Source: Gammaproteobacteria bacterium (GTDB lineage: Bacteria > Pseudomonadota > Gammaproteobacteria > UBA4575). Taken from it: a stretch of DNA of 64,000 bases. The notes below the pieces were generated by a model that was not told the DNA's origin, searched no databases, and was given only the letters and a program-made list of their open reading frames with translations. A program made the translations under genes and the position numbers. Positions within the stretch are counted from its first letter, which is position 1; every line of letters begins with the position of its first letter. The DNA lies in assembly GCA_965222615.1 (NCBI GenBank), contig CBDCUI010000008.1, positions 960,001 through 1,024,000 on the forward strand, read 5' to 3'. Below are positions 38,025 to 55,000 of the stretch, in pieces.

Positions 38025-38367
38025 TGGCGGAGAGGGACACTTGCGAGCGGGTATTGCTCGCAAATTGATGCTCGCGTAGCGATTCCATTATACATATTTT
38101 TTCAATAGCATTATGGCACGCACCTTCCATGATGCGGGCTCTCACTCACGTGTCCCTACGCTCGCGCCTGAAGGATTACAAAATACCTTCATAGGAGATT
38201 ATCTAAAAGTTGCTCGCATCCTCCCTGATGCGAACTCTCTCTCGTACTTCCATGTACTCCACCATAAAGGCCGTTGTGGCAAAGCCACAACGTTCAAAAT
38301 TGTTCCAGACAATTTTGTCGAACTCCATTGTTAATATGTCGGGAGTTCGAGACTTACCAACTGCATA
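38025..38367 (-). repeat. tRNA-linked repeat A (downstream of tRNA-Arg ACG); ends in the tRNA-Ser 3' sequence CCCTCTCCGCCA
   Basis: Its reverse complement aligns with 38703-38901 and 44622-44935. Confidence 0.85.
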
Positions 38368-38404
38368 AATATTAAAAAAGCCCTTTAAAGGTCTTTTTTA
38401 ATAT
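38368..38404 (-). terminator. Hairpin/T-tract terminator after tRNA-Arg(ACG)
   Basis: AATATTAAAAAAG...CTTTTTTAATAT inverted repeat. Confidence 0.6.
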
Positions 38405-39982: not shown

Positions 39983-40030
39983 TAAAGAGTAGTAACTAAA
40001 ATTTAATATTCATCAAATTCATATAGACTC

Positions 40031-40624
40031 GTGCAGAAAACCTCCACAGGTAAATCTTTAAAGCCTGTACTTTTTGTTCTTTTACTCATCCCCTTAGCTA
40101 TTCCCATTTATTGGTTTTTTACTAATGGGTTAGGTGCTAACCCAATTGAAACCATTAATCGTTGGACAGGTGACTGGGCGTTAAGAATTTTATTATTAAC
40201 TTTAACATTCTCGCCTTTGATAAGGATAACGCATTGGAATAATATCATTCAGTACAGAAGAATGTTTGGCTTATTTGCGTTTTTCTATGTATGTGTACAT
40301 ATATCATCATATGTTGTATTGGATCAGTTTTTTGATTTTAATGAAATTATAGATGATGTGTTAAAACGACCATTTATTACTGCAGGGTTTTCAGCATTTA
40401 TTTTGCTTATTCCACTTGCTATAACGTCATCTAATAAAATGGTTGAGCGTTTACAGTACCGATGGATTCAGTTACATAAACTGATTTATATTATCGCTAT
40501 CTTAGCTGTGTTACATTTTTGGTGGATGGTGAAAGCAGATAAACGTGAACCAGCTATCTATGCTGTTTTTCTTGCATTTTTGCTTGGGGTTAGATTGCTT
40601 TTCTATTTAAAGAGAAGAATTTAA
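40031..40624 (+). CDS. msrQ: Methionine sulfoxide reductase heme-binding membrane subunit
   Basis: RRMFGL and W..LHKLIY motifs; follows msrP. Confidence 0.95.
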   Translation: MQKTSTGKSLKPVLFVLLLIPLAIPIYWFFTNGLGANPIETINRWTGDWALRILLLTLTFSPLIRITHWNNIIQYRRMFGLFAFFYVCVHISSYVVLDQFFDFNEIIDDVLKRPFITAGFSAFILLIPLAITSSNKMVERLQYRWIQLHKLIYIIAILAVLHFWWMVKADKREPAIYAVFLAFLLGVRLLFYLKRRI

Positions 40625-40637
40625 AGTTATAAGGCAC

Positions 40638-42062
40638 ATGAAATATTCTCATGTCGTTGTTATTGACCAAGGTACGCATTCAACACGTGCAATTATCTAT
40701 AACCAAGCAGGTGATTCGGTATTTAAAGTCCAACAATCGATTGAACTTTTCTATTCTGAAAAATACCATGTTGAACAAGATGCTCAGCAAATCTTAAACT
40801 CATGTCGATATGTCATTGAAAAGTCAAAGGAATACATTGATGGTAATCGGCTACATAAGGTTGCTTTTGCTCTTACGACACAACGTTCAACAGTTGTCGC
40901 TTGGGACTTGCATTCTGGTGCTGCGTTAGCCCCGGCTTTAAGCTGGTTAGATACACGAGCTCAAAGTTATCTGCATTCACTTAAATTAAACGATAAACAA
41001 GTAAAATCTAAAACTGGTCTACCAATTTCGGCTCATTACGGTGCCTCCAAATTAAATTGGTTGTTACAAAATAATTCAAGTGTGAAAAAAGCTAAGCAAG
41101 AGGGTAATCTTTTACTTGGTCCACTTTCATCTTTTTTGATATTTAACCTTCTAGAAAAAAAACCATGCTTTGTAGATTATGCAAATGCACATCGCACGTT
41201 ATTATGGAACTTGAAAACCAGGAACTGGGATCAATCGCTAATGCAAGAATTTGATATTGATGTAACACTATTACCGAAGTGTGTGCCAAATATTTTTGCG
41301 TACGGAAAATTATGCGACTCAAGTTTTCCGTTAATCCTGGCTAATGGGGATCAAAATAGTGCAGTGTGTGGGTATGGAAAACTTGAAAAAAACACAATAT
41401 TTGTAAATATTGGCACAGGTGGATTTGTGTTAGCGGCAGGTCAAAAAACACCAGTGTTAGATTCCCGCTTATTAGCGAGTATTACCTATAGCACGAACGC
41501 AACTCAAGAATATGCGATGGAAGGGACAATTAATGGGGCGGGAGCAGCGCTTACTTGGGCTGAAGATGCTTGGAAAATTAATAACATTGGAAATGTGTCC
41601 TGGCATGATGTAATGGATGTTCCCATATTTCTAAATTCTGTTGGTGGCTTAGGTTCTCCCTATTGGGTAAGTGATTTGCACCCAAAATTTATAGATAAGA
41701 ACAAAAGCTACAGCAGCTATACACATGAGCAATGTAAAGCAGCCATTATGGAGAGCATAGTGTTTCTCATTGCCATAAATATTAATGAAATGCAAAAGCA
41801 TGGTATCAACGCGAACAAGCTTATTGTTGCAGGGGGGTTAAGCACCGATAAAAACTTATGCCAACGCATAGCGGATTTGTGTGAGGTCCCAGTAGTTGCA
41901 TCTAGTTTTAAAGAAGCCACATCTCGTGGTGCCGCATGGCTAAGTTTAGAGCAACCGAATTGGGAGCCCGTTGATATTATTAGCTTTGCTCCCAAAAAGG
42001 ATAAAAACATAATTGCGCGTTATAACAGCTTTAAGATGGAAATTGAGAGGTTAGTCCATTGA
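40638..42062 (+). CDS. FGGY-family carbohydrate kinase, glycerol kinase-like
   Basis: IDQGTHS, QRST and GDQ motifs; clustered with glpQ-like and glpD genes. Confidence 0.85.
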   Translation: MKYSHVVVIDQGTHSTRAIIYNQAGDSVFKVQQSIELFYSEKYHVEQDAQQILNSCRYVIEKSKEYIDGNRLHKVAFALTTQRSTVVAWDLHSGAALAPALSWLDTRAQSYLHSLKLNDKQVKSKTGLPISAHYGASKLNWLLQNNSSVKKAKQEGNLLLGPLSSFLIFNLLEKKPCFVDYANAHRTLLWNLKTRNWDQSLMQEFDIDVTLLPKCVPNIFAYGKLCDSSFPLILANGDQNSAVCGYGKLEKNTIFVNIGTGGFVLAAGQKTPVLDSRLLASITYSTNATQEYAMEGTINGAGAALTWAEDAWKINNIGNVSWHDVMDVPIFLNSVGGLGSPYWVSDLHPKFIDKNKSYSSYTHEQCKAAIMESIVFLIAININEMQKHGINANKLIVAGGLSTDKNLCQRIADLCEVPVVASSFKEATSRGAAWLSLEQPNWEPVDIISFAPKKDKNIIARYNSFKMEIERLVH

Positions 42063-42790
42063 TGAATAGATTGGTTGCGCATCGTGGCGATATGACTAAC
42101 TATCCAGAAAATAGTTTGTTGGCTTTTCGTCGTGCTGTGGAGCTAGGTTTTACCTATATTGAACTAGATGTTCAGTTATCAAAAGATAATGAGCCAATAG
42201 TGATTCATGATGAAAATTTAAAGAGGACTACAAGTGTAAACAAAAATGTAAGAGATTTAATGGCAGAAGAATTAACGACTATACCAATTAACTCACCACA
42301 TCGATTTAACGAAAAAAAGAACCTTTTAAAGGTTCCTACTCTAAGGCAAGTAGTAAAACTATTAAACGGCTATTCTAAAATTAATTTATTTGTAGAAATA
42401 AAAAAAGAAAGTGTTGAACATTTTGATGTTAGGAGTGTTGTAGATAAAGTGTTAGAAGTGCAGAACGATGCAAAATTTAACATTATTATTATCTCGTTCG
42501 TAGATAAAGTTGTTGACTATGTAAAAAGTCAAGAGGTGTATCCAACCGGATTTGTGCTGAAAAAATATGATGAAAAATATCATTTAAAAGCACAAAAACT
42601 AGAGCCGGATTATTTATTTTGTAATATCAAAAAGATTAATCGCCCATCAACATTATGGGTAGGCTCATGGAAATGGGTGCTTTATGACATTAAAAATCCT
42701 GAGTTTGCTTATGAGCTATTAGAACAGGGAGTTTCATTTATTGAAACAGGCGATATCGAAAAACTCAGCAAATTTGAAGAATTTAATTAG
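42062..42790 (+). CDS. Glycerophosphodiester phosphodiesterase
   Basis: AHRG, PENS, ELDV and HD motifs. Confidence 0.9.
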   Translation: MNRLVAHRGDMTNYPENSLLAFRRAVELGFTYIELDVQLSKDNEPIVIHDENLKRTTSVNKNVRDLMAEELTTIPINSPHRFNEKKNLLKVPTLRQVVKLLNGYSKINLFVEIKKESVEHFDVRSVVDKVLEVQNDAKFNIIIISFVDKVVDYVKSQEVYPTGFVLKKYDEKYHLKAQKLEPDYLFCNIKKINRPSTLWVGSWKWVLYDIKNPEFAYELLEQGVSFIETGDIEKLSKFEEFN

Positions 42791-42796
42791 AATACT

Positions 42797-43981
42797 ATGG
42801 ACTATGATGTTGCAATCATAGGCGGAGGCATACATGGTGTTGGTGTTGCACAAGCAGCGGCTGCGCAGGGTTATCAAACCGTATTGCTTGAGCAATATGA
42901 TCATTTAGCTGAGGGGACCTCATCTCGTTCCAGCAAATTAATTCATGGTGGTTTGCGTTACTTGGAACAATTTGAGCTCTCACTGGTGCGTGAATGTTTA
43001 TTAGAGCGTAGTTATTTACTTGCGAATGCTCCTGATCTTGTAAAACTTGCTCCTGTCTATATTCCGGTTTATAAGGACTCTAAACGTTCTGCATGGATGA
43101 TACGCACTGGTCTATCGTTGTATGCCATGTTGGGCAATCTAAGTGGTAATACCCGATTTAAAAAACTTGATAAAAGCAATTGGAACAATCTGCATGGATT
43201 AGAGGTGCAAAATCTACAAGCAGTTTTTCAATATTATGAAGCACAGACAGATGATCGTTTGCTGACACAGGCAGTGATGCAATCGGCACAGCAGCATGGT
43301 GCTGAGCTTAGACTAAATGCTGAGGTAAATAGGATAGAACTGGATCGAGATCATTGCACAGTCAGCTACGTTGATAAGGTAGGCAAAGAAATTTCTATTA
43401 ATAGTTTGACTGTAGTCAATGCGGCTGGGCCCTGGGCACATGAGGTGCTAAATACAGTACATCCATCGCAGGAGAATGTTGCGGTTGATCTGGTTCAAGG
43501 AACACATATTGTTTTACCAATTTATCTAGATGATGTAATTTTTTATATTGAAAGCCCTCAAGATAAACGACCTGTTTTTGTAATGCCTTGGTATGAGCAT
43601 ACAATGATCGGTACAACAGAAAGTATTTTTAACGATGACCCGAGTAAAACTTATCCTCTTGAACAAGAGATAGAATATTTATTGCAAGCTTTTTATCACT
43701 ATTTTCCAAAATATAAGCATCAAAAAATGCAAATAAATGAAAAGTTTGCGGGCTTGCGTGTATTACCAAGGAATCAACAAGATGCCAATAAACGCTCTAG
43801 GGAAACTATTTTCTTACGTGACCGTAAACACAAACCTCGGATTTTATCGATATTTGGTGGTAAATTAACGGCCTACCGCAAAACCGCTGAGCATGTGCTT
43901 GACTATCTAGACACCTCACTGCCATTAGCAAAATATCAAATTGATACTAGAGAATTGAAATTGACAAGACCAAACAATTGA
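42797..43981 (+). CDS. glpD: FAD-dependent glycerol-3-phosphate dehydrogenase/oxidase (short form)
   Basis: IGGGIHG, GTSSRSSKLIHGGLRYLE and GGKLTAYR motifs. Confidence 0.88.
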   Translation: MDYDVAIIGGGIHGVGVAQAAAAQGYQTVLLEQYDHLAEGTSSRSSKLIHGGLRYLEQFELSLVRECLLERSYLLANAPDLVKLAPVYIPVYKDSKRSAWMIRTGLSLYAMLGNLSGNTRFKKLDKSNWNNLHGLEVQNLQAVFQYYEAQTDDRLLTQAVMQSAQQHGAELRLNAEVNRIELDRDHCTVSYVDKVGKEISINSLTVVNAAGPWAHEVLNTVHPSQENVAVDLVQGTHIVLPIYLDDVIFYIESPQDKRPVFVMPWYEHTMIGTTESIFNDDPSKTYPLEQEIEYLLQAFYHYFPKYKHQKMQINEKFAGLRVLPRNQQDANKRSRETIFLRDRKHKPRILSIFGGKLTAYRKTAEHVLDYLDTSLPLAKYQIDTRELKLTRPNN

Positions 43982-43987
43982 GGAGAT

Positions 43988-44464
43988 TTATAAATTTACA
44001 GAAATTAAATAATTATAGTAGCTCTCTCGCATGGGTATTTTTGCATCGATAGATTGGTTCATGACCTCATCAAGTACTGCTTCAAACTCATCGCGAATAG
44101 TATTGAAAAAAGTTTCAGTAAGCGGATATCTACCCGTAGGTAGCGCAATTACTTTTTGCTGAAATTTAAGTGGAAAGATTAATCTATCTGCAAATAGAAT
44201 TTTTACTGCAAAAACCCAACGCCAATCCCAACAGTAAGGTACTGGAGAATTTTTTCTTATACACACATCAAGTAATTCCCCTCCATTCATTTCGCCTTTA
44301 CTGAAAATAATGGCTTGATAAGAGTTGGGATTATTTGAACAGATCAAATTTGCTTCAACGAGATCTGATTTATCTGTGTGCTGTTTAAGTTTTTTGTATA
44401 AAGCTGGATAGAAAGCTTCAAGAAAAGCCAATAACTTAGGGTATTGTTGGGCTGACGTAACCAT
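43988..44464 (-). CDS. Hypothetical protein
   Basis: 158-aa ORF filling the gap; no recognised motif. Confidence 0.6.
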   Translation of the reverse strand: MVTSAQQYPKLLAFLEAFYPALYKKLKQHTDKSDLVEANLICSNNPNSYQAIIFSKGEMNGGELLDVCIRKNSPVPYCWDWRWVFAVKILFADRLIFPLKFQQKVIALPTGRYPLTETFFNTIRDEFEAVLDEVMNQSIDAKIPMRESYYNYLISVNL

Positions 44465-44506
44465 AAATCCAAATTGTGCTAATCTAAATCTTTATACTAA
44501 CATCGT

Positions 44507-44583
44507 GCGCCTGTAGCTCAGCTGGATAGAGTACCTGGCTTCGAACCAGGTGGTCGGGGGTTCGAATCCCTCCAGGCGCGCCA
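44507..44583 (+). tRNA. tRNA-Arg(TCG)
   Basis: Cloverleaf with anticodon arm CCTGG-CTTCGAA-CCAGG; 70/77 nt identical to the ACG tRNA. Confidence 0.95.
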
Positions 44584-44621
44584 ACATCCAAATGGGTCAA
44601 TAATGGCCCATTTGGATGTTG
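44582..44621 (+). terminator. Long hairpin directly after tRNA-Arg(TCG)
   Basis: CAACATCCAAATGGG...CCCATTTGGATGTTG perfect 15-bp stem; no long U tract. Confidence 0.5.
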
Positions 44622-44935
44622 ATGCAATTGGTTAGTTTCGAACCCCCGACATAGATAATGGAGTTCGACAAATTCGTCTGGCGAGTACATGGATGTACGA
44701 GAGAGAGAACGTATCATGGAAGATGCGTACCGCTGTATAAAAACAGCAGTTTATTTTTGAATATGTGGCTAAGTCAAAATAGTCGAAAAGGGCGAGTATA
44801 GAGATATGGGAGAGAGAGTTCGCATCAGGGAGGATGCGAGCAACTTTTAGACAATCTCCCATGAAGGTATTTTGTAATCCTCCGGATATGAGCGTAGGAA
44901 CACACGAAAGAGTCTGCATCATGGAAAGTGCGCTC
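44622..44935 (+). repeat. tRNA-linked repeat C (downstream of tRNA-Arg TCG)
   Basis: Shares the TCGAAC...GGAGTTCGAC hairpin and CGCATCAGGGAGGATGCGAGCAACTTTTAGA block with repeat A. Confidence 0.85.
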
Positions 44936-45073
44936 AACAATTACCTTCAAAGCACCTGACTTTCAATGATCAATTGCCATAAATTTCACTAGTCTTCGCT
45001 GCTTATTTAACAAGTAGCATCTTCAAGTGACTCTAAGTATTTGAAAGAAGGTGAACTTAATAGAAAGTTTTTG

Positions 45074-45089
45074 TGTGACTTAAGTCACA
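45074..45089. promoter_or_regulatory. CRP/Vfr-type binding site
   Basis: TGTGA-CTTAAG-TCACA, a perfect consensus palindrome in intergenic DNA. Confidence 0.65.
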
Positions 45090-45330
45090 TTTTGGGAATC
45101 TGGTCATGTCTTAATCCACCTTTTTCATAATTCTATCAATATACTTTAAGACTCTATATTTAAGTTACACACTTAATGCAAATAGAGACGTGGACAGATA
45201 TGGAGGTAGCGAGATCTGCACGGTGCGGAAGTACCAAATAAATAAAAGTATAAAAAAGTTGATGAAGTCGAAGTTAATGAAAGTTTTTAAATGTTAACTT
45301 CATTTTCAGAGAGTTATAGGAGGTAGGGAT

Positions 45331-45444
45331 ATGCAGACAAGAAATAATTCAATATTAAGAAAGCTACTCATACCGGAAATTATATTATTTTTAATTGGTA
45401 TCTCGGGATTTTTAATACAGTTTTTTAATATATTTCCAGGCTAA
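45331..45444 (+). CDS. 37-aa single-TM small protein (not in ORF track)
   Basis: AGGAGG 7 nt upstream of ATG; MQTRNNSILRKLLIPEIILFLIGISGFLIQFFNIFPG. Confidence 0.55.
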   Translation: MQTRNNSILRKLLIPEIILFLIGISGFLIQFFNIFPG

Positions 45445-46000
45445 TTAATTGATCTGAAAGTTTAAAGCATTTACTAATTGCTAAAATCGTAATGGCAGTT
45501 CAATTATTGTCAGTGAACAATTAAATTTTTCTCTCTAATGTAAATTTCAAAAGCACGCGTATTAGTATGTGTACTTTATTTATAGCTAGTTTTTACTGGA
45601 AAATTTAAAAATATACTGGTGCATCTTCAAAGAATATTTCCATTGATTTTAGTAAGCGAGATTAATGAAGTTAGTTAGCTTATTTAGAAAAATTAGGCGA
45701 TGAATCAAACTAAATTTTACAAATAGTTTTTTAACAAAAATACTACATTAAATTATCCAGTTGTCACTGAAACATATAACAAGTATTAAGAACTACATGA
45801 TAATTAACAAAAATATAAATATATATATTTCAGAATGTTATATGACTATTTTTATTAAGTCTCAAAGTTTTATTAAACATTTGTTATCTGGTTCATTTTT
45901 TTAATAAAAAAGCAATTTTTGCTTTGGAAATATTCGGTGTGATGTTAAAGTACCTGCTTCATTAAATAAGTGATAGCTTTTAAAGAGGGAGGATTATTTA

Positions 46001-46252
46001 ATGAGTGAAGAGAAATCACAAAGTGAATCTAGAAGAAGGTTTTTAAAAACCACTGGCAAATTTGCTATCTATACACCACCTGCATTGTTTTTAATGAGTA
46101 AAGCCAATGCGAATCACAGCGACTTGTATAAATCTGTCAAGCCAAATGGCATACGTCGTGGTAAACGTAATGGCCAACGCAGAAGCTATGGGCGTCGTAG
46201 ACGTTATGGCCGACGCGGGTTAAGGAGACGACTTAGAAGGTTCTTCTCTTAG
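46001..46252 (+). CDS. Putative RiPP-like precursor: Tat-type SRRRFLK, YTPPAL motif, Arg-rich tail
   Basis: Strong GGAGGA RBS; directly upstream of an RRE-kinase gene. Confidence 0.8.
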   Translation: MSEEKSQSESRRRFLKTTGKFAIYTPPALFLMSKANANHSDLYKSVKPNGIRRGKRNGQRRSYGRRRRYGRRGLRRRLRRFFS

Positions 46253-46440
46253 AAAAAGTCATATCTAGATTTTATCTATAGAATCAAATCATATTTGGTG
46301 CCAAAACAAGAGTTTAGCGCCCCTTCCATATACAAATTTTAAAGCGCTGATCTAAAGGGGGCTATCTTTTCCCCTTTTTGTATAAATATCCGCTAACCTA
46401 TTGAATAGAGTTCAATAAAATATTTTGTCAAACATTACTC

Positions 46441-47634
46441 ATGTCTAGCCAGCTAAGCTCAGTATTTCCTTTGCCTAATGATTCAATTAGCACATATCTA
46501 ATTGATAATGAACTTATCGTGTTTGATGCTCGTTCTAGACAGCTAGTGCGTCTAAATGGGACAGCAACTCAAATCTGGAAGATGCATGAGAATAATATAA
46601 CTACAGATGAAATAGCCTCTGAATTATCAGCGATCTATGGATTAAAAAAAACAGAGTTACTCCCTGATATCCGCATGGCTTTAAACGAATGGCATGTAAT
46701 GGGTATGTTGGGGAATGAACATATACCAACTGTAGAAGAGGAAGCTGATGTTCTTGATCATTTGAAACAAACAACTGTAAATTATCAAGATAGACAAGGT
46801 TTTATTAAAGTAAAAGAATTTACATTTTTAGATACGGGATTTGTTATAGAAGCATCAAGTGATGAGCTTAAAAAAATTTTATTGCCATTATTTTCGCATT
46901 TGGGAAAAATAGAAAGTAAAACCACTCATAAAATAAAAGTTATAGAAGAAAATTCTAGTTATGTTGTGTTAGATGGCGATATGGAATTAGGGTGTACTAA
47001 TAGACTTGAAGAAATTGCACCGATAGTCAATGCACATGTGTTGGTAGTAGGTTTTTTAGAGGTGGACTGTCTTTCAGTTTTTCATTCAGGTGTGATATAT
47101 GATGAAACTGGAGTAGTGTTATTAAGTGCAGGAAGTGGTAGTGGTAAGTCAACATTAACTGCTGCATTGATGTGTGCCGGGAAAACTTTTTTCACAGACG
47201 AGTTAGCTATTCTTACACACGATAAAAAAATACGCCCTGCACCTGGTTGTGTTGGCTTAAAAGAAGGCTCATGGAACGTAATTGAAGAATTCTATCCAAG
47301 CATTTTTAAATTACCTACTCATATGCGTCAGGACGATAAGGTAGTTAAATATGTCCCACCAGCTTCACTGCCTTCTGTCGAGCAACTGAAACATGGAGAG
47401 AAGGTGCGAGCGATAGTATTCCCAAATTATTCACCTGACTGCCAATCAGCATTGGTGGAGATTTCTGCTGTAGATGCCCTGGTGAAAATAACCGATGCAG
47501 GTTATCACACAAACCAAACTTTGAATCATGAATCTGTAGCTAAATTGGTTGATTGGATTGTGGATATACCTGCCTATGAGTTAAAAGTAAACGACCTTAA
47601 AGAAGCGGTTGATCTCGTATCAAAATTATTTTAA
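46441..47634 (+). CDS. PqqD/RRE domain fused to an HprK-related kinase
   Basis: N-terminal LN.TA..IW winged-helix RRE pattern; FHSG...GSGSGKSTL...TDE kinase motifs. Confidence 0.85.
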   Translation: MSSQLSSVFPLPNDSISTYLIDNELIVFDARSRQLVRLNGTATQIWKMHENNITTDEIASELSAIYGLKKTELLPDIRMALNEWHVMGMLGNEHIPTVEEEADVLDHLKQTTVNYQDRQGFIKVKEFTFLDTGFVIEASSDELKKILLPLFSHLGKIESKTTHKIKVIEENSSYVVLDGDMELGCTNRLEEIAPIVNAHVLVVGFLEVDCLSVFHSGVIYDETGVVLLSAGSGSGKSTLTAALMCAGKTFFTDELAILTHDKKIRPAPGCVGLKEGSWNVIEEFYPSIFKLPTHMRQDDKVVKYVPPASLPSVEQLKHGEKVRAIVFPNYSPDCQSALVEISAVDALVKITDAGYHTNQTLNHESVAKLVDWIVDIPAYELKVNDLKEAVDLVSKLF

Positions 47635-47639
47635 GTAAT

Positions 47640-48680
47640 ATGAGTTATCACGAATATCGTTTTATTACGTCTACAGTATCTCCGTTTATTTCAGCTGAGG
47701 AATTAGTAAAGCAGATTAAATCAAATGAACCACTGAACTGGGAAGTGGTAGCAGATATTGCAGGCACTCATTCAATCATTCAAGCGCTATACCCAGCATT
47801 TATTGAAAAAGATGTTGTAGGTTATATTCCAAATGAATTTCTGGATTATGCACAACATTTAAGTGAACTAAACCAAGATCGTAATCGAATGATGAAGGCA
47901 CAGCTGATTGAGGCTGTGTCTATTATTAACAAGTCTGGAATAAAACCCCTATTGATGAAAGGCGCAGCACATCTCATACTCGATACATTTTCGAGGACTT
48001 CTGATCGATTATTAACAGATTTGGATATCCTAGTTCCTGCAGATGAAATCAAGCGCATTAGCGAAGCATTTATTGAAGCTGGCTATACATTTTACGAAGA
48101 AAAGATTGATTTTATAGAAACCCACCATCACTACCCTCCATTAATCAAGCAAGGTGAATGTGCAATGATTGAGTTGCATCGAGAGTTAATGTTTAGTGAG
48201 CAGCAACATATATTTCCAACAAAACGTGCGTGGGAAAATACTATTGATATTACGTTGTCTGGGAATGCTCAAGCTAAAGTACTCAATCCAACCTATAGAG
48301 TGTTTCTTAGTTTCTTGCATAATAGTTTGGTTGACTCTCTTTATCTAAAAGGCTACGTTGAAATTCGACAATTGCACGAACTGGCTAGAACTCAGTTTGT
48401 ATATTCTCCCGATATAGATTGGGGAGCAATGCAAAGCTATGCGCACGAAAAAAATGTTTCTAAACAACTAGACGCTAATTTATATGCGGCTAGTAAGTTT
48501 ATGGGTATTCCAGAATTTATGGAGTTTATCAACAATAATGTAATAAGTGCTGTATTACATTACTACAGAGTTTGTTTAAAGCTTAAATATAGTTGGTTTG
48601 AAACCTTGGATGCTAAGCTATATAGAAGAAAAAAACGCATGCGTTCCAGAACTAATCTGCCATCTCACGAAACTGTATGA
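47640..48680 (+). CDS. Nucleotidyltransferase (NTP_transf_5-like)
   Basis: LLMKGAA, R...DLDILV and IELH motifs. Confidence 0.85.
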   Translation: MSYHEYRFITSTVSPFISAEELVKQIKSNEPLNWEVVADIAGTHSIIQALYPAFIEKDVVGYIPNEFLDYAQHLSELNQDRNRMMKAQLIEAVSIINKSGIKPLLMKGAAHLILDTFSRTSDRLLTDLDILVPADEIKRISEAFIEAGYTFYEEKIDFIETHHHYPPLIKQGECAMIELHRELMFSEQQHIFPTKRAWENTIDITLSGNAQAKVLNPTYRVFLSFLHNSLVDSLYLKGYVEIRQLHELARTQFVYSPDIDWGAMQSYAHEKNVSKQLDANLYAASKFMGIPEFMEFINNNVISAVLHYYRVCLKLKYSWFETLDAKLYRRKKRMRSRTNLPSHETV

Positions 48681-48709
48681 AAATTATTGCGCTTGTTTTC
48701 TAGTTTCAA

Positions 48710-49168
48710 ATGAAAACTAAGGCAATAACAAATACACATTATTTTTTCTTTTTTTTAAGTATTTTTCTCGTTGCATGTAGTGACACCTCTGAGTTGAAGC
48801 CTTTTACTAGTGATGGGTGTTCTCTTTTTCCAGATGGTTCTTTAATTAGTAAAAAAGATTGGTGCGAATGTTGTTTTCAACATGACTTAGCCTATTGGCG
48901 TGGAGGTACTGAGAAAGAACGCGAAATCGCAGATGCTAAGTTGAAAGCATGTGTATATGAGAAAACCGGTGATGAGACCCTAGCAAAAATTATGTATGAC
49001 GGGGTGCGTCTTGGCGGTAGTCCTTATTTTTATAATTGGTATCGTTGGGGATATGGCTGGTCTTATCAGAGGAAGTATCAAGCATTAACAGATGTTGAGT
49101 TAAAGCAAGTAACAAGACTTATAGAAGAGCACCAAATAAGCAGCATAAAATATTGCCAAACTTATTGA
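48710..49168 (+). CDS. Cys/Trp-rich lipoprotein with phospholipase A2-like CCxxHDxxY motif
   Basis: LVAC lipobox; SDGCS...CCFQHDLAYW. Confidence 0.65.
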   Translation: MKTKAITNTHYFFFFLSIFLVACSDTSELKPFTSDGCSLFPDGSLISKKDWCECCFQHDLAYWRGGTEKEREIADAKLKACVYEKTGDETLAKIMYDGVRLGGSPYFYNWYRWGYGWSYQRKYQALTDVELKQVTRLIEEHQISSIKYCQTY

Positions 49169-49210
49169 AAGTTCTCCATATGTTCTCTATAATGAGAACA
49201 TATGGAGAAT
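49165..49210 (+). promoter_or_regulatory. lexA promoter (TTGAAA-17-TATAAT) with two inverted GTTC-N7-GTTC-type operators
   Basis: A 16-bp perfect inverted repeat (49172-49187 / 49194-49209) flanks the -10 hexamer. Confidence 0.85.
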
Positions 49211-49214
49211 ATTT

Positions 49215-49805
49215 ATGCCAACTGAACGAGAGCATGCCACGCTACAATTCATCGCAGATTATATACTCAGACACCGCAAGGCGCCCCTACTAACGGAAAT
49301 TGCTAAGGGTTTGGGCATTCAGTCTAAGGGCGTTGTACACCGATATTTATCCGCATTAGAAGAGCAAGGCTATATTCGCCGTTATCAAAAGCATCGGGGT
49401 ATAGAATTGATCGACTATCCCGATTACGACGAATTGCCGTTGTTGGGGCGCATTGCTGCAGGTAAACCCATTGAAGCAATTGAAGATCGTGAGTTGATTA
49501 GTTTTGCACATTTGCTAGGTGGCCCCAATCGCTATGTGTTGCAAGTTAAAGGTCTTTCTATGATTGACGAGGGCATTCGCAGTGGCGACCTTGTGGTAAT
49601 CGAACAATCTAATACAGCGCGTAACAACCAAATTGTGGTGGCATTGATCGATAACCACGAAGCTACTTTAAAAAGAATTAAATTTCTAAATAGAGACGTG
49701 ATTCGTTTGATTCCTGCAAATAAAAATATGCAACCTAAAAACTATTCAGCTGATCGCGTCACGATACAAGGGGTATTGGTTGGTCAAGTGAGAGTGTATT
49801 CATAG
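49215..49805 (+). CDS. lexA: LexA-family repressor
   Basis: wHTH domain; IAAG cleavage site; GLSM Ser and TLKR Lys catalytic dyad. Confidence 0.93.
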   Translation: MPTEREHATLQFIADYILRHRKAPLLTEIAKGLGIQSKGVVHRYLSALEEQGYIRRYQKHRGIELIDYPDYDELPLLGRIAAGKPIEAIEDRELISFAHLLGGPNRYVLQVKGLSMIDEGIRSGDLVVIEQSNTARNNQIVVALIDNHEATLKRIKFLNRDVIRLIPANKNMQPKNYSADRVTIQGVLVGQVRVYS

Positions 49806-49808
49806 CAC

Positions 49809-51026
49809 ATGAAGCGTTGGCCGCGTGCAGTTATTTTTATCGACATGGATGCCTTTTTTGCTAGTGTCGAACAAAATTCACGACCTGAATTACGTGGAAA
49901 GCCAATCGGTATTACTAATGGTCTTACCGGCACCTGTTTTATTACTTGTTCGTACGAAGCAAGAAGGTATGGAATAAAAACTGGTATGCGGCTTAAAGAA
50001 GCACGTAGTTTATGTCCACATGTGCAACAAATTCCTGCAAGAGCAGAATTATATGCCGAAGTATCTACACGCATTATGTCGGCATTGCAGTCAGTTACTC
50101 CTGATATCGAAATATTTTCAGTTGATGAAGCTTTTCTTGATGTCACTCATTGTCAGGGTATTTATAAAAATCCTATGCATGCAGCCGAACTTGCTAAACA
50201 AATTGTTGAAAAGGCGGGTGGAGTAACCTGTAGTATAGGCATTAGCGGTGATAAAACCACAGCAAAGTATGCAGCTAAAACTAAAAAACCTGGAGGGCTA
50301 ATATCCGTGCCGCCTTGGAAGGCGCGTGACTTTTTACAAGATGTACCTGTTACTGAATTATGTGGAATTGCTAGAGGCATAGGGGAATTTCTTAATGATA
50401 GAAAAATCTATGTCTGTGGCGACATGATTAAACTTCCAATTGGTGAGCTTGCGGGGCGATTTGGTAATTTAGGTCGACGTATTTGGTATATGGCACAAGG
50501 TTTAGATCCAGAGCCTATAAAGCAAACTATAGCTGCACCGAAATCAATTGGACATGGGAAAATAATGCCGCCTAACACAAGAAGTCCTAATGTATTAAAA
50601 ACTTATTTACATCATATGAGTGAAAAAGTTGCAGCGCGTTTGCGTAAACATGCATTTGAGGCACAATGTTTTTTTGTTGGATTCCGTACTAGCCATAAAT
50701 GGTTGGCTGATAAATTTCGAGTGGAAGAGCCTACTGATGACGGACGAGAAATTAGAATGGTTGCAGAAAAGATACTTGGAGTTTGGAAAGGCGAGGGCGT
50801 GTTTCAAGTACAGATTACGGCGCTTGATCTGCGTCCACGCGGGAATCAACTGTCTTTTTTTAATATTGTAGATGAACAGCAGCAATGTCTAAATCAAGCG
50901 ATGGACCAAATCAATGAGCGCTTTGGTGAATTTGCAATTACCTCTGCTACATTGTTGAACCGTTCTGAGATGCCTAATGTGATATCTCCTTCATGGAAGC
51001 CGGTTGGGCATCGAAGGACAGTATAA
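49809..51026 (+). CDS. dinB: Y-family DNA polymerase IV
   Basis: DMDAFFASVE, SYEAR and SVDEAFLD motifs. Confidence 0.92.
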   Translation: MKRWPRAVIFIDMDAFFASVEQNSRPELRGKPIGITNGLTGTCFITCSYEARRYGIKTGMRLKEARSLCPHVQQIPARAELYAEVSTRIMSALQSVTPDIEIFSVDEAFLDVTHCQGIYKNPMHAAELAKQIVEKAGGVTCSIGISGDKTTAKYAAKTKKPGGLISVPPWKARDFLQDVPVTELCGIARGIGEFLNDRKIYVCGDMIKLPIGELAGRFGNLGRRIWYMAQGLDPEPIKQTIAAPKSIGHGKIMPPNTRSPNVLKTYLHHMSEKVAARLRKHAFEAQCFFVGFRTSHKWLADKFRVEEPTDDGREIRMVAEKILGVWKGEGVFQVQITALDLRPRGNQLSFFNIVDEQQQCLNQAMDQINERFGEFAITSATLLNRSEMPNVISPSWKPVGHRRTV

Positions 51027-51182
51027 GTACATGGTTTAATTATTTGGGATACACAGGTCATCGAAGAACAGTGTGAGCACATAGTTCATTTAACATGAAG
51101 TCTGCTGGTCATCGAAAGACAGTATGAGCGCATGATTCATTTATGCGGGATTGGCAGGTTATCGAAAGACAGTGTGTGAGCA
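51006..51182 (+). repeat. Four degenerate ~50-bp tandem units beginning inside the dinB 3' end
   Basis: GG(G/T)(C/T)ATCGAA..ACAGT at 51006, 51056, 51107 and 51157. Confidence 0.85.
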
Positions 51183-51480
51183 ATAAGATAGAGATCTTTC
51201 TTTGAGCTTTAGCTGAGGAGGCTCAAGCAGAGTCAGTAATATACCAATTCTGTTTAAAAGCAACTGAGAATTTCTTATGCGATGCAAATGGTTGTAATAG
51301 ACAGATAAATGGTAATAAATTCACCTAAAATCTGTGACTTACTTGCCGTTAATCTTTTACATGTAGCCTTTTAGTGAAATTGTCAAGGAAAATTAAGTCC
51401 ACATTCATACAATAGGTTACGACAATTAGGTCAAAGTAGTTTGGTTATAGGGAATAACTTTTGATGAAAAGGAGCACTTC

Positions 51481-51669
51481 ATGATATCAGCCAAAAGCAT
51501 TGAACGGCTTTATCAATCGTCAAAGCCATCAAAACTTCGTGCAGCGAGAAAATTGTACTCGTTACATACCAATTTAGATAGTGTAGAAGATACGACTATG
51601 GATACTCATTTAAGTCGTGATCAAGTCTTAGAAATTTATGATTGGATAGCGCAGTTGAATGCACAATAA
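51481..51669 (+). CDS. Small hypothetical protein
   Basis: AAGGAG RBS; 62 aa. Confidence 0.6.
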   Translation: MISAKSIERLYQSSKPSKLRAARKLYSLHTNLDSVEDTTMDTHLSRDQVLEIYDWIAQLNAQ

Positions 51670-51738
51670 TTTTTTGAAATTAAAGTACGGTTAATTTTTG
51701 GGAGCCTTTATAAACGCTAACTTAAATAGGGATGTAAT

Positions 51739-51837
51739 ATGGATGTAACACACACAATACTAATGTATGACATTATTGCACTAGTTGGAATTATAGTAGC
51801 AAGTTCTGTTTATTTGTACCGTCGGAAGTTTCACTAG
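51739..51837 (+). CDS. 32-aa single-TM small protein (not in ORF track)
   Basis: AGGGA RBS; MDVTHTILMYDIIALVGIIVASSVYLYRRKFH. Confidence 0.5.
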   Translation: MDVTHTILMYDIIALVGIIVASSVYLYRRKFH

Positions 51838-51913
51838 AAAGTTAAAATTAAGAGACTAGAGGTTTCTTAAATAACAGAGTCCAACTCCAAGCGTTTAACA
51901 CGCTTATAATAAT

Positions 51914-51938
51914 AAGCCCCCATCTTAAGGGGGCTTTC
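51914..51938. terminator. Bidirectional terminator candidate between convergent genes
   Basis: AAGCCCC...GGGGCTTT stem. Confidence 0.6.
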
Positions 51939-51955
51939 TAATTTCAGAACTTAAA

Positions 51956-52453
51956 TTATAGATCTTTTGTAAAATTAAAGGCTGAGCATCTTAAAGTGCC
52001 CATTAGCGCTTCATGAAACTCTTGTGTTTTATCATCACCAATTTCATTACGGACGCAGTCAATTAATTTTTCAGTAAATTTTATACCATCACTGGCGATA
52101 CGCTCTCCCTTGGGAGATAGCTTTAGATTGACGACTCTTCTGTCTTGTTTACTATGTTCACGGCTTACAAGCCCTTTAGCTTCTAACAATTCAAGTTGTC
52201 TGCTAATAGTACCAGAATCTGTAAATGTAGCTGCAGATACCTTTGCTGGTGTTGTTGCAAGTTCTAAGTAAATAGACTTGAGTATCCGCCATTGCTGATA
52301 ATTAACATGATGCTTTTTTAAATAGTCTGACGTCTTTTTGCGAGCAATACTATTTATAGTTTCTATATATGTAATTATGTCTGCATCAATTTTATTATCT
52401 TTTTTTTCTAGCACACGTGTTGTAAAAGCACTCTCTTCTTCTGTAATGTTCAT
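51956..52453 (-). CDS. MarR-family transcriptional regulator
   Basis: QWRIL, ISRQL..LE.KGLV.R and DRR...LSPKG motifs. Confidence 0.9.
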   Translation of the reverse strand: MNITEEESAFTTRVLEKKDNKIDADIITYIETINSIARKKTSDYLKKHHVNYQQWRILKSIYLELATTPAKVSAATFTDSGTISRQLELLEAKGLVSREHSKQDRRVVNLKLSPKGERIASDGIKFTEKLIDCVRNEIGDDKTQEFHEALMGTLRCSAFNFTKDL

Positions 52454-53124
52454 GAATACCTCGGTTCATAGTAAAAATTTCCGTTTTTTACCAACCTAAA
52501 TTGTAGTAGTTGTAGATTTTATTATTATTTGATAATTGTCATTAAACAATCATCCACCACCACAGTAATTCCTGTCGAAACAAAATTATGTGAGCAAGAT
52601 AACAGAAATTAGATCCCTCCTGATTTAAGGGGGTTTTTAATTACACTCAGTACACATGCCAATAAAATGACTAAAACCACCCACAACATATAGATTAATT
52701 GTATAAGGAAAATTAAGGCAATTTAAATAATTATTGAAAAATCAGTAATTGAATATACAGTTAAATTAATGGCCTAACTGAGCTAGCAATGTACAAAAGT
52801 TAAGTATCAAACACTGTGGCAAAATCAAATCAGTTTCATGCATAAACTGACTTTTTAGATAGGTACTTGATTAATATATATATTATGTGGCTAATCGTAC
52901 ATGCTGTTTGTTATTGTATTCAAATGTACTGGACAAGACAGGTAAGATACGTGTAGGTAATTCAACAGAAAAGTCATTAAATATCATTAAATTATTTGGA
53001 AGACTTGGCTCTCGTACGTCATTTCATCACTTATTAACGCACTTTCGACCGAATAGTGATTCACACGGTTTAATGCATAAAAATACTATCTCACCTAGGT
53101 GAAAATGATACCGAGGTTAATTCA

Positions 53125-53355
53125 ATGAGCTATTTTGGTGAGAGTACACTTGAGCATAAGGTTTTGAAATATATGGAAGGCATCAAGAATGCTAATAGTC
53201 TGAAAGACTACGAAATTGTCCGTATTATGAATAAAGTTGTCGATTATTATAGAGATAATCTTGTGTATGAGTTCAACGAAGAAGAAGCAAATACTATTTT
53301 ACAAGAAGCAAATGATTCGGCCATTCAGGCAGCTAAGAACTCTGCAGATTCCTAA
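53125..53355 (+). CDS. Small hypothetical protein
   Basis: GAGG RBS; 76 aa with helical character. Confidence 0.6.
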   Translation: MSYFGESTLEHKVLKYMEGIKNANSLKDYEIVRIMNKVVDYYRDNLVYEFNEEEANTILQEANDSAIQAAKNSADS

Positions 53356-53585
53356 TATAATTTTGTTTATCGGTTTTTAGATCAGAATAGAATTCGTGTT
53401 CATATAATTACTCTATCAAGATAAGTAGTTCGTTTCTTAATACTGTTATTTTTTATTAGTTGTTATTCCATTCGTAAAAGGTTTTCTCGACTTTTATTTT
53501 TAGTAGGTTTGTTTAATAGTTGAAATTAAAGCAACTAAACCAGCAAACATCATTAATCAATAATTACTACTAGATCAAAGTAAAT

Positions 53586-54074
53586 TTAAAGTTCGTTTAA
53601 AGAACTTTTCAAAGATGTAATTGCACTTGTGGAAACCAATATCGCGAATCTTGTAATTGTAACGTTTGGTAAAAAAAGACATGTGACTGCGCCGATAATA
53701 GCTCCATTTAAGGTTTGTTGAACCTGCTTGCTCTGTATTGCTAGACCATGGGCTAAGCGTACGAAATGCTCACAATTAAAGGTTACTAAGTTATAACGGA
53801 TATTGGCACCGATGTAACTTCGAGCACGCTTAAGAATTACATCTGTACAATCTGTCCCTTTTATATTGCTGCCTTCATAAGGTCTGTTTCCTACAACCAG
53901 GTCCCATGGCTCTTCTTGAACACCTGTAGTTCGATGTGAGAGTGAAATTAAATTAGGTTTGCCATTAGTGTAGCGGTCACTCACAATAGCAAAATGTTTA
54001 TAGAACGGATATCGTATACTGATTACAGATCCAGGCTTTAATTTTAGAAGGTGTTCAGTAGCATTCGTATCCAT
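53586..54074 (-). CDS. LRAT-like (permuted NlpC/P60) acyltransferase/hydrolase
   Basis: PG......PFYKHFAI and YNLVTFNCEHFV motifs; hydrophobic C-terminus. Confidence 0.8.
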   Translation of the reverse strand: MDTNATEHLLKLKPGSVISIRYPFYKHFAIVSDRYTNGKPNLISLSHRTTGVQEEPWDLVVGNRPYEGSNIKGTDCTDVILKRARSYIGANIRYNLVTFNCEHFVRLAHGLAIQSKQVQQTLNGAIIGAVTCLFLPNVTITRFAILVSTSAITSLKSSLNEL

Positions 54075-54171
54075 AGTGATTTGCTGGACATTATATACTC
54101 ATTAAAGTTTCATTTTACTATAGTTTTGACATATTTTATATTTCAAGCTTTATTTACACTGTTTAATTAAA

Positions 54172-54828
54172 ATGTCTAAAAAAATTTTATCGTTGAGAGT
54201 ATTTTTTGCCACTCTATTGATTATGTATATGGTAGCTTGCTCCCAAGCATATTACGGCACTTTGGAAAAAGTAGGTATCCATAAACGTGATATCTTAGTT
54301 GATCGAGTAGAGGCCGCTAAAGAATCACAAGAGGCTGCAAGAGATCAATTTCAATCTGCCCTTGAGGAATTTAGTTCTGTAGTGAATTTTGATGGGGGTA
54401 ATCTTGAAGAAACCTATAAAAAGTTAAATAAAGAGCTTCAAGAAAGTGAGGCTCGTGCAAATGAGGTTAAAACAAGAATTGATAAGGTAGAAGAAGTCTC
54501 AAAGGCGCTATTTACTGAATGGGAGAAGGAATTAAAGGAGTATGATAGCGATACCCTGCGTAAAAAAAGTGAACAACAACTTATCAATACAAAACAACGC
54601 TATAACCATCTAATGGTATCTATGAGACGTGCTGAGGTTCGTATAGACCCTGTTTTGCGACCATTTAGAGACCAAGTGTTATTTCTAAAGCATAATTTAA
54701 ATGCTAAGGCTATCGCATCTTTGCGTGGGGAGTTGGTTCAGGTAGAGGCCGATACCGATAAATTGATAAGAGAGCTTGAGTTATCAATAGCTGAAGCGGA
54801 TAAATTTATCCAAGAGTCTGAACTCTGA
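54172..54828 (+). CDS. DUF2959-like coiled-coil lipoprotein
   Basis: VAC lipobox; EKVGIHKRDILVDRV and DQVLFLKHNLNA motifs. Confidence 0.8.
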   Translation: MSKKILSLRVFFATLLIMYMVACSQAYYGTLEKVGIHKRDILVDRVEAAKESQEAARDQFQSALEEFSSVVNFDGGNLEETYKKLNKELQESEARANEVKTRIDKVEEVSKALFTEWEKELKEYDSDTLRKKSEQQLINTKQRYNHLMVSMRRAEVRIDPVLRPFRDQVLFLKHNLNAKAIASLRGELVQVEADTDKLIRELELSIAEADKFIQESEL

Positions 54829-55000
54829 GTGAGTTGCCCCCGACAGATTGTTATATATATAGAAAATACTTGGACTGACTAAGATAAATATTAGGTAATA
54901 GCCTTAACTCTAAAGATATCCATTTATTCCTAAATTTATTCCGTTTGTCCTCATGTTTAAAAAGGCTAATCTAATGCCTTGATATAGTCGATCAAATTTT

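Follow-up and report, generated by a model that had tools for sequence, protein, structure and literature searches.

We examined a 64,000-nucleotide stretch of DNA (hereafter the window; GCA_965222615.1, contig CBDCUI010000008.1, positions 960,001-1,024,000) from a Gammaproteobacteria bacterium of the UBA4575 lineage, which contains a compact cassette of three open reading frames (ORFs) on the forward strand. They encode a peptide of 83 amino acids, a kinase of 397 amino acids carrying a putative RiPP recognition element (RRE; RiPP, peptide made on the ribosome and modified after translation) and a nucleotidyltransferase-like enzyme of 346 amino acids (Table 1). The peptide contains the motifs SRRRFLK (residues 10-16), YTPPAL (residues 24-29) and ANA (residues 35-37), has 16 arginines among its last 34 residues and ends in a serine. 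These features had been listed in a first-pass annotation made from the sequence, and they are confirmed by the ORF and its translation. The annotation had also described the two downstream genes correctly. Residues 24-86 of the 397 amino acid protein match PqqD in Pfam (E = 3.2e-8, over the cut-off) and residues 213-396 match HprK_rel_A in NCBIfam (90.7 bits, E = 8.4e-26), while the 346 amino acid protein matches NTP_transf_5 (PF14907, E = 1.7e-29, over the cut-off).

The peptide belongs to a large family. A profile search against 1.84 billion representatives returned 1046 proteins with E <= 0.001. At the stricter limit of E <= 1e-10 there were 227 representative clusters, and the 150 among the profile matches listed are without exception 52-171 amino acids long. 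In 35 aligned peptides the leader residues R11, R12, G19, A22, Y24 and P27 are invariant, and F14, K20, T25, P26 and A28 are nearly so. The resulting family pattern (S-R-R-x-F-L-K...G-K-F-A-x-Y-T-P-P-A-L...AxA) is found beside fused kinases in many phyla. The YxxPx[LVIM] motif, located within the hydrophobic stretch of the leader, is present in all 131 motif-bearing representatives. The genome from which the window derives has four precursor genes and a single kinase/NTP_transf_5 cassette. Over 23 leader codons the ratios of synonymous to non-synonymous differences for the paralogue pairs are 7:5, 9:7, 11:5, 11:4, 15:3 and 13:5. The differences are mostly synonymous and the leader therefore appears to be maintained by selection on the protein. 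Judged by this conservation, the 83 amino acid peptide is the product of a real gene from a conserved family, beyond what chance would produce. The three unlinked paralogues are located at C8:587557-587808 (+), C8:420027-420290 (+) and C9:433490-433720 (-) of the source genome (G000; loci L085, L086 and L087). Their leaders are nearly identical and their tails unrelated, one being Gly/Ser-rich and ending in CKYF and two being Asn/Gly-rich with a Cys pair. No kinase gene lies nearby, and a purine-rich stretch directly precedes each of the three start codons.

The fused kinase has about 50 homologue clusters, mainly from metagenomic Gammaproteobacteria. With the kinase alignment 80 loci were gathered; the kinase ORF was present in 78 of these and the RRE fusion in 19 of the 78. 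The expectation that kinase homologues are accompanied by such peptides was supported in both directions. A profile made from eight leaders detected a matching short ORF at 16 of the 19 fused-kinase loci; two of the remaining loci (L018 and L048) have weaker RR-peptides, and at L001, where the upstream sequence is only 963 nt long, none was seen. Conversely, a leader-only scan of 185,579 species genomes gave 33 loci, 18 of which have a fused kinase within 5 kb. The other 15 are divided between assemblies with the kinase elsewhere (8) and metagenome-assembled genomes (MAGs) in which the kinase was not found (7). In the order of the source organism (56 genomes, one family) the kinase occurs in 7 genomes, the peptides in 8 and neither in 48. 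Peptides are present in all 7 kinase-bearing genomes; in one further genome, 96% complete and in 210 contigs, peptides occur without the kinase. The distribution is patchy over five genera, and we treat the co-occurrence as a pattern rather than a statistic because the relatives are not independent. On the complete MAG chromosome of L096 (5683-6826) the fused kinase is broken into three ORFs of 256, 102 and 57 amino acids. At the same locus a tandem pair of precursor genes seems intact, as does the NTP_transf_5 gene, and the split kinase reflects either decay or an assembly error.

The AlphaFold2 (AF2) model of the kinase fusion (mean predicted local distance difference test score, pLDDT, of 89.1) consists of an N-terminal RRE of three strands and three helices, a middle domain and a P-loop domain. 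In Foldseek the RRE model superposes on TbiB1 with its bound leader (5v1u_B) with a target-normalised template modelling (TM) score of 0.87 and a root-mean-square deviation of 1.1 Å over 80 columns. At the level of a predicted structure, this agrees with the RRE-type link between kinase and peptide that had been proposed. Sequence searches of solved structures gave weak matches of the RRE alone to TbiB1 (E = 0.14) and TfuB1 (E = 0.67), whereas queries with the whole kinase and with the NTP_transf_5 enzyme yielded no useful match. With the whole fusion as Foldseek query, ATP-dependent phosphoenolpyruvate carboxykinases rank first; HprK belongs to this fold class. The Walker A residues G233, G235, K236, S237 and T238, as well as D253, are invariant in 20 kinase homologues. 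In 17 homologues of the NTP_transf_5 enzyme K107, G108, R123, D127, D129, H163, H180, H227 and R243 are invariant. The AF2 model of this enzyme (pLDDT 89.6) gave no match to a solved structure at E <= 0.001 in a fold search. Weak matches were to Pol-beta-type nucleotidyltransferases (JHP933, MenT1/3, ANT(2'')-Ia and FKRP), of which ANT(2'')-Ia is also the distant match reported for PsmN, the nucleotidyltransferase of the pseudomycoidin cluster. A complex prediction that combined the alignments of kinase and peptide with ATP and Mg scored 0.02 against a mark of 0.32, which speaks neither for nor against binding.

The enzymes recall the clusters of lasso peptides of the paeninodin and pseudomycoidin type. 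In the portions of the two reports on which this comparison draws (PMC6993621, PMC8498205), the linear precursor is the substrate of an HprK-like kinase, placing a hexose on the phosphate requires a PsmN-like nucleotidyltransferase, and the RRE reads [Y/W]xxPxL. Mutation of D134/D136 of PsmN abolishes hexose addition to phospho-pseudomycoidin, and the DxD motif of the window enzyme (D127, D129) corresponds in kind to these residues (PMC6993621, same portions). The window cassette differs in that it lacks a macrolactam cyclase, a B2 protease and an ABC exporter, and the C-terminal Ser used by the kinases of those clusters is not conserved in the window family. None of these three lasso genes, nor a dedicated signal peptidase, was found among ORFs and Pfam matches within 5 kb on either side, in agreement with the first-pass annotation, which had not seen the former three. 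The cyclase and B2 protease of a lasso precursor could also be encoded elsewhere in the genome. Such an arrangement would explain the lasso-type RRE, the YxxPxL motif and the pair of kinase and nucleotidyltransferase known from the above clusters (PMC6993621, PMC8498205, as above), and the genome does have four long AsnB-like genes. However, the nearest of these lies about 250 kb from the cassette, the only transglutaminase-like gene encodes a generic PF01841 protein in an unrelated context beside a nitroreductase, and the only other PqqD match adjoins a radical-SAM (pqqE-like) gene. Moreover, AsnB-like and transglutaminase-like families are absent from the 14 largest neighbour families listed for the 78 kinase loci. 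A lasso peptide is in our view highly improbable, and the comparison supports the earlier proposal of a non-lasso RiPP-like system.

The kind of system is no longer unknown, because cyclase-less clusters with an RRE, an HprK kinase and an NTP-transferase were published in 2026 as the Linear Polyphosphorylated Peptide (LPP) clusters of Bacillota, for example lpp of Paenibacillus alginolyticus DSM5050 (Popov et al., Nat Commun 2026, PMC13381572). According to the sections of that paper used here, which also underlie the comparisons below, LPP clusters encode a stand-alone RRE, a kinase resembling HprK, an NTP-transferase, a SipW-like (archaeal-type) signal peptidase I as leader peptidase and an MsbA-like ABC pump. 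The precursors are 35-200 amino acids long with a conserved N-terminus (YxxPxVLxHQxIxFETxxS) and variable tails. The kinase polyphosphorylates S3 of the LppA core, which is the last Ser of the motif and lies 18 residues past the Tyr of YxxP; the peptidase cleaves after T-1, for which the RRE is required, and the YxxP motif is read by the discrete RREs of both lasso and LPP clusters (PMC13381572). The window cassette shares with these clusters the lack of a cyclase and the combination of a lasso-type RRE with an HprK-like kinase and with an NTP-transferase that is uncharacterised, the last compared with its LPP counterpart LppN by description only. It also shares the YxxPx[V/L] N-terminus, a Ser located 18-19 residues past the Tyr, highly variable C-termini and the possibility of several precursors per genome.

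There are also differences. The RRE is fused to the kinase in the window and discrete in LPP clusters, as described in those sections. No SipW-like peptidase gene lies within 5 kb of the window cassette (the S24 protein encoded nearby has a DNA-binding domain and is a LexA), and there is no ABC transporter, and hence no MsbA-like pump, among the ORFs of positions 40000-55000. A twin-arginine motif opens the leader, which also has an AxA site, the conserved Ser/Thr is 19 instead of 18 residues past the Tyr, and the HQxIxFET part of the LPP consensus is absent. The precursor genes are scattered round the chromosome, and the hosts are Gammaproteobacteria and members of other Gram-negative phyla instead of Bacillota. 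Since the peptidase and the pump, two defining genes of LPP clusters, are absent, we do not file the cassette as a plain LPP member; it is most likely an LPP-like system in which cleavage and export are outsourced to housekeeping machinery. LPPs are called restricted to Bacillota in the text of the LPP paper, which mentions neither Proteobacteria nor Tat nor twin-arginine (PMC13381572). What is new relative to LPP is, at the sequence level, the Tat-type leader, the RRE-kinase fusion, the scattered precursors and the spread over Gram-negative phyla.

Beyond the leader, a Ser or Thr is located exactly 32 residues past the first Arg (19 past the Tyr), ungapped, in 28 of the 35 aligned peptides. 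The same distance is found in 114 of the 131 motif-bearing representatives, and 127 of these have a Ser or Thr within positions 31-34 past the first Arg. The conserved residue usually has a basic residue before it and a hydrophobic one three positions ahead of it. The C-terminal Ser, which the first-pass annotation had implied as the target, is in contrast present in 6 of the 35 peptides and 18 of the 131 representatives, and was rejected as a general kinase target on this ground. Because the Ser/Thr 19 residues past the Tyr is conserved and the LPP kinase uses a Ser 18 residues past the Tyr of YxxP, S45 is, by analogy, a likelier phospho-target of the window peptide than the C-terminal S83. 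The annotation was right in outline and wrong on the likely target residue, and it has been partly overtaken by the LPP work (PMC13381572).

A textbook twin-arginine translocation (Tat) signal consists of S/T-R-R-x-F-L-K, a moderately hydrophobic stretch and an AxA site. At the motif level the leader agrees with this consensus. Among the 35 aligned peptides the RR pair is preceded by S or T in 25, the F is found in 32, the L in 31 and the K in 31; an AxA-like site is present in 32 and a K or R in the c-region in 23. Other weak profile matches of the leaders are all to N-termini of known Tat substrates. The source genome contains tatA, tatB and tatC and a single S26 signal peptidase gene, which is located on another contig far from the cassette. 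By its sequence features the leader is probably RRE handle and Tat/signal-peptidase signal at once. Such a double role had been suggested before, and the combination of S/T-R-R-x-F-L-K with YxxPx[LVIM] speaks for it, although the Tat profiles stay below their thresholds (see below). The use of a general-export signal peptide as RiPP leader, with housekeeping export instead of a dedicated pump, resembles the bufferins and other MNIO-modified RiPPs, which differ in having Sec signals and unrelated enzymes; in the consulted part of that report Sec signals are described as rare among bacterial RiPPs, and Tat goes unmentioned (PMC12452194). Literature searches found no natural Tat-type RiPP leader, no proteobacterial LPP and, in the papers covered, no use of the term 'HprK-related kinase', although the supplementary cluster lists of the LPP paper (PMC13381572) might include cases outside Bacillota.

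Taken together, we think it rather probable that the window contains a RiPP-like cassette of three genes representing a Gram-negative form of the LPP type, with a leader that serves both as RRE handle and as Tat/signal-peptidase signal. Several points weigh against this. TIGR01409 matches 13 of the 35 peptides at E <= 1, all below threshold (best E = 0.03), and does not match the window peptide; PF10518 matches 9 of the 35, again below threshold (best E = 0.0084), and both profiles are very short. The hydrophobic stretch is just about 12 residues long, with a mean Kyte-Doolittle value of 1.45 over the 35 peptides, and contains two prolines. S45 of the window peptide aligns with the conserved Ser/Thr column solely via a two-residue insertion (a +2 shift), and 4 of the 131 motif-bearing representatives have no Ser or Thr at positions 31-34 past the first Arg. 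The kinase scores 90.7 bits against a curated HprK_rel_A cut-off of 200, and LppN, the LPP NTP-transferase, was inactive in a heterologous host according to the cited sections (PMC13381572). Paired cysteines were considered as a sign of export to an oxidising destination. Of the 35 peptides 16 have two Cys and 3 have a single one, but the pattern fails in the wider set of 131 (one Cys in 31, two in 29) and was dropped as an argument.

The sub-threshold Tat profiles and the short, proline-rich hydrophobic stretch would also fit another explanation, in which the peptide is the substrate of the kinase and the RR motif is recognised by the RRE or the kinase rather than by an export system. The product would then leave by another route or not at all, and an unlinked protease would remove the leader, perhaps after the conserved K/R-Ser. 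Conservation is continuous between the RR pair and the Ser column, a trait of long RiPP leaders, and in the cited part of the LPP paper (PMC13381572) the leader consensus likewise reaches the modified Ser. Against this explanation stand the full S/T-R-R-x-F-L-K consensus (with the counts given above) and the hydrophobic stretch, c-region K/R and AxA-like site after the motif. In addition, the cassette is unlike LPP clusters in that it has no exporter or peptidase, and the partners of the unfused sister family (see below) start with RR and a hydrophobic stretch too. We consider this explanation unlikely.

The peptides might instead be ordinary small proteins exported by Tat or Sec, with the RRE-kinase serving as a chaperone or regulator that binds signal peptides, or acting on another target. 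Binding of the peptide by the RRE is deduced here from motif and fold, of the four paralogues three lie apart from the enzyme genes, and several core types are conserved between genomes, as would be expected for ordinary small proteins. This is hard to reconcile with the presence of YxxPx[LVIM] in 131 of 131 representatives, which is stricter than a hydrophobic region demands, or with a Ser/Thr held at a fixed distance. Nor does it account for the joint occurrence of kinase and peptides in the seven kinase-bearing genomes of the order and the invariant catalytic residues in both enzymes. Ordinary exported proteins therefore appear to us decidedly unlikely.

With the leader as both RRE handle and export signal, the lasso-type RRE at the N-terminus of the kinase would bind YTPPAL of the precursor in the cytoplasm, and the HprK-like kinase would phosphorylate, perhaps repeatedly, a Ser just past the leader, for which S45 and not S83 is the best candidate. 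The NTP_transf_5 enzyme may then add to the phosphate a hexose, which is the decoration in pseudomycoidin, or another group derived from a nucleoside diphosphate. Because the cassette has no dedicated peptidase or exporter and the leader has a twin-arginine motif, a short hydrophobic stretch and an AxA site, we infer that the housekeeping Tat translocase takes over the modified peptide and that signal peptidase I cuts it, so that a modified polycationic peptide would be released outside the cytoplasm. The RRE motif lies inside the hydrophobic core of the signal, so RRE binding may hold back export until modification is complete. The same enzymes probably also act on the three unlinked paralogous precursors.

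The tails vary, and polycationic ones recur in the family. The RRFFS/RRLFS ending of the window peptide is also found in L002, L096 and P0060, and ...ILRRFFS (window, L002, L096, P0060) is one of several core types that recur between genomes; others are GGGWLQDLLNRL, CG.G.LA[DE]LFCKY, CNNG.GNG..C.PG...NNAEN and CNQGVG.PVV.DGCQPG. Polycationic cores are a major class, since K and R make up at least 25% in 37 of 147 representatives and the net charge is at least +5 in 47 of 147, and at least two aromatic residues are present among the last eight in 39 of 147. The composition of the polycationic, aromatic-ended tails suggests that they are membrane- or polyanion-binding peptides. At L113 (4035-5610, Desulfomonilaceae) three tandem precursor genes and a 27 amino acid fragment lie 5' of the fused kinase, and two of the three precursors end in C-I-S-C-G/T.

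The positions of the features are given in Table 1. The spacer of 188 nt between the peptide gene and the kinase gene holds the terminator-like hairpin, which is retained in the predicted fold of the spacer; the spacer overall is not unusually stable (z = -1.03). A terminator-like hairpin between RiPP precursor and enzyme genes is a common arrangement. A promoter scan did not exceed shuffled sequences (15 found, 19.4 expected), and a tRNA was the sole Rfam match over 43500-49500. On the 5' side a tRNA-Arg gene (44507-44583) is followed by about 1.4 kb without a convincing gene before the precursor gene. This gap contains a very hydrophobic ORF of 37 amino acids (45331-45444, +) with an AGGAGG ribosome-binding site, for which no counterpart was found among the fetched relatives. 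Directly 3' of the tRNA-Arg gene, at 44680-44930, lies a dispersed short repeat (about 50-125 bp, 80-92% identical), with a further copy at about 38119-38372 and a dozen copies genome-wide. On the 3' side the cassette is followed by a lipoprotein-like ORF of 152 amino acids (48710-49168) and by genes for a LexA-type repressor and a Y-family polymerase (49215-51026). The lipoprotein-like protein weakly matches group XII secretory phospholipase A2 (E = 0.013, below the cut-off). It was rejected as a fourth cassette member; its recurrence is limited to a 73 amino acid fragment in one relative. The arrangement with LexA and polymerase is retained in four relatives, where LexA is 85-92% identical, compared to 53-62% for the cassette enzymes. 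A recent island insertion at the tRNA-Arg gene is unsupported, because in these four relatives the cassette adjoins the same lexA-like and polymerase genes.

Table 1. Features of the cassette in the window (position 1 is the first nucleotide of the window).
Feature	Position	Strand	Basis
Shine-Dalgarno sequence GGGAGG	45987..45992	+	Sequence; 8 nt 5' of the ATG of the peptide gene
Precursor peptide gene, 83 amino acids	46001..46252	+	ORF; family conservation; paralogue divergence dominated by synonymous changes
SRRRFLK twin-arginine motif, residues 10-16	46028..46048	+	RR in 35/35 aligned peptides
YTPPAL, YxxPxL motif of the RRE-binding type, residues 24-29, within the hydrophobic stretch	46070..46087	+	Y24 and P27 invariant
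ANA, putative signal-peptidase-I-type cleavage site, residues 35-37	46103..46111	+	AxA-like site in 32/35 peptides
Ser45, candidate phospho-acceptor	46133..46135	+	Conserved Ser/Thr column
Polycationic tail, 16 Arg in 34 residues, ending RRFFS	46148..46249	+	Sequence
Terminator-like hairpin and T run, possible attenuator, between peptide and kinase genes	46357..46383	+	Pattern scan
RRE-HprK-like kinase fusion, 397 amino acids	46441..47634	+	Pfam, NCBIfam, homologues, AF2 model
RRE, PqqD-like winged helix (three strands, three helices), residues 16-86	46486..46698	+	Pfam, AF2 model, Foldseek
P-loop kinase domain, residues 212-394; Walker A G233-T238 at 47137-47154	47074..47622	+	HprK_rel_A match; phosphoenolpyruvate carboxykinase-like fold
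NTP_transf_5 nucleotidyltransferase-like enzyme, 346 amino acids; DxD (D127, D129) at 48018-48026	47640..48680	+	PF14907

The same three domains in the same order are known from the HPr-rel-A system of NCBIfam (kinase A, TIGR04352; PqqD family peptide chaperone, TIGR04353; an NTP_transf_5 neighbour). The window kinase differs in scoring below the cut-off of TIGR04352 (90.7 against 200), its PqqD part scores below that of TIGR04353 (21.5 against 35), and the partners of the fused kinases are peptides of 50-140 amino acids instead of proteins of about 225. The canonical HPr-rel-A locus L066 scores 396.8 bits (kinase) and 40.3 bits (PqqD). A tree of the kinase domain with 94 rows places all 32 fused kinases in one clade of 36 rows, which is split from the 58 unfused kinases with support of 100/99 (midpoint root only). 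The clade's four other rows had not been counted as fusions; among them, L003 is truncated by the end of its contig, and L009 and L020 have ORFs long enough for an N-terminal domain to have gone undetected. The clade comprises Pseudomonadota, Thermodesulfobacteriota, Acidobacteriota, Nitrospinota and Campylobacterota.

The unfused clade corresponds to the HPr-rel-A system of NCBIfam in the strict sense. At 39 of 59 unfused loci a conserved neighbour starts with RR and a hydrophobic stretch. At 28 unfused loci (within L022-L079, e.g. L066:4815-5474 and L072:7729-8412) the neighbour is a protein of about 225 amino acids without a Pfam or NCBIfam family, a candidate protein-sized substrate of HPr-rel-A cassettes. 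In 31 such proteins the Ser in C-T-x-S-G-x-x-S-G-N is invariant and lies 33 residues past a nearly invariant twin Arg; a Tat profile matches 2 of the 31. The candidate acceptor Ser is therefore located 32-33 residues past the twin arginines in both branches. On account of this parallel in Ser spacing and RR pair it is conceivable, though we hold it tentatively and rather doubt it, that all cassettes of PqqD/RRE, HprK-related kinase and NTP_transf_5, fused or HPr-rel-A, form one machinery. Its substrates would be exported by Tat and range from 50 to about 225 amino acids; a Ser close to their mature N-terminus would receive the phospho-decoration before export, with binding of the signal peptide by the RRE as an export checkpoint. 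At an actinomycetotal locus with an unfused kinase (L055:5281-7995) three paralogous Cys-rich proteins of about 140 amino acids have clear SRRRMLKRVGAGAA...AFAQ twin-arginine signals. Several unfused loci, L033, L061 and L073 among them, are surrounded by genes of the polysaccharide-export, chain-length-determinant and glycosyltransferase-like kinds, which recalls reports of a capsule-locus context for LPP and paeninodin clusters.

If the proposed reading of the window cassette is true, linear phosphorylated peptides would extend from Bacillota to Gram-negative phyla, with at least 227 peptide clusters (50% identity) in public data. To our knowledge it would also be the first RiPP-type leader to double as a twin-arginine signal, with Tat and signal peptidase I replacing a dedicated peptidase and pump, and the gating of export by RRE binding would become a testable idea. 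The analysis names a concrete candidate acceptor residue in a compact three-gene system suited to expression in E. coli. Such a system could show what NTP_transf_5 does, a question common to the pseudomycoidin and LPP work, and the peptides supply candidate substrates for the long-annotated, unexplained HPr-rel-A system.

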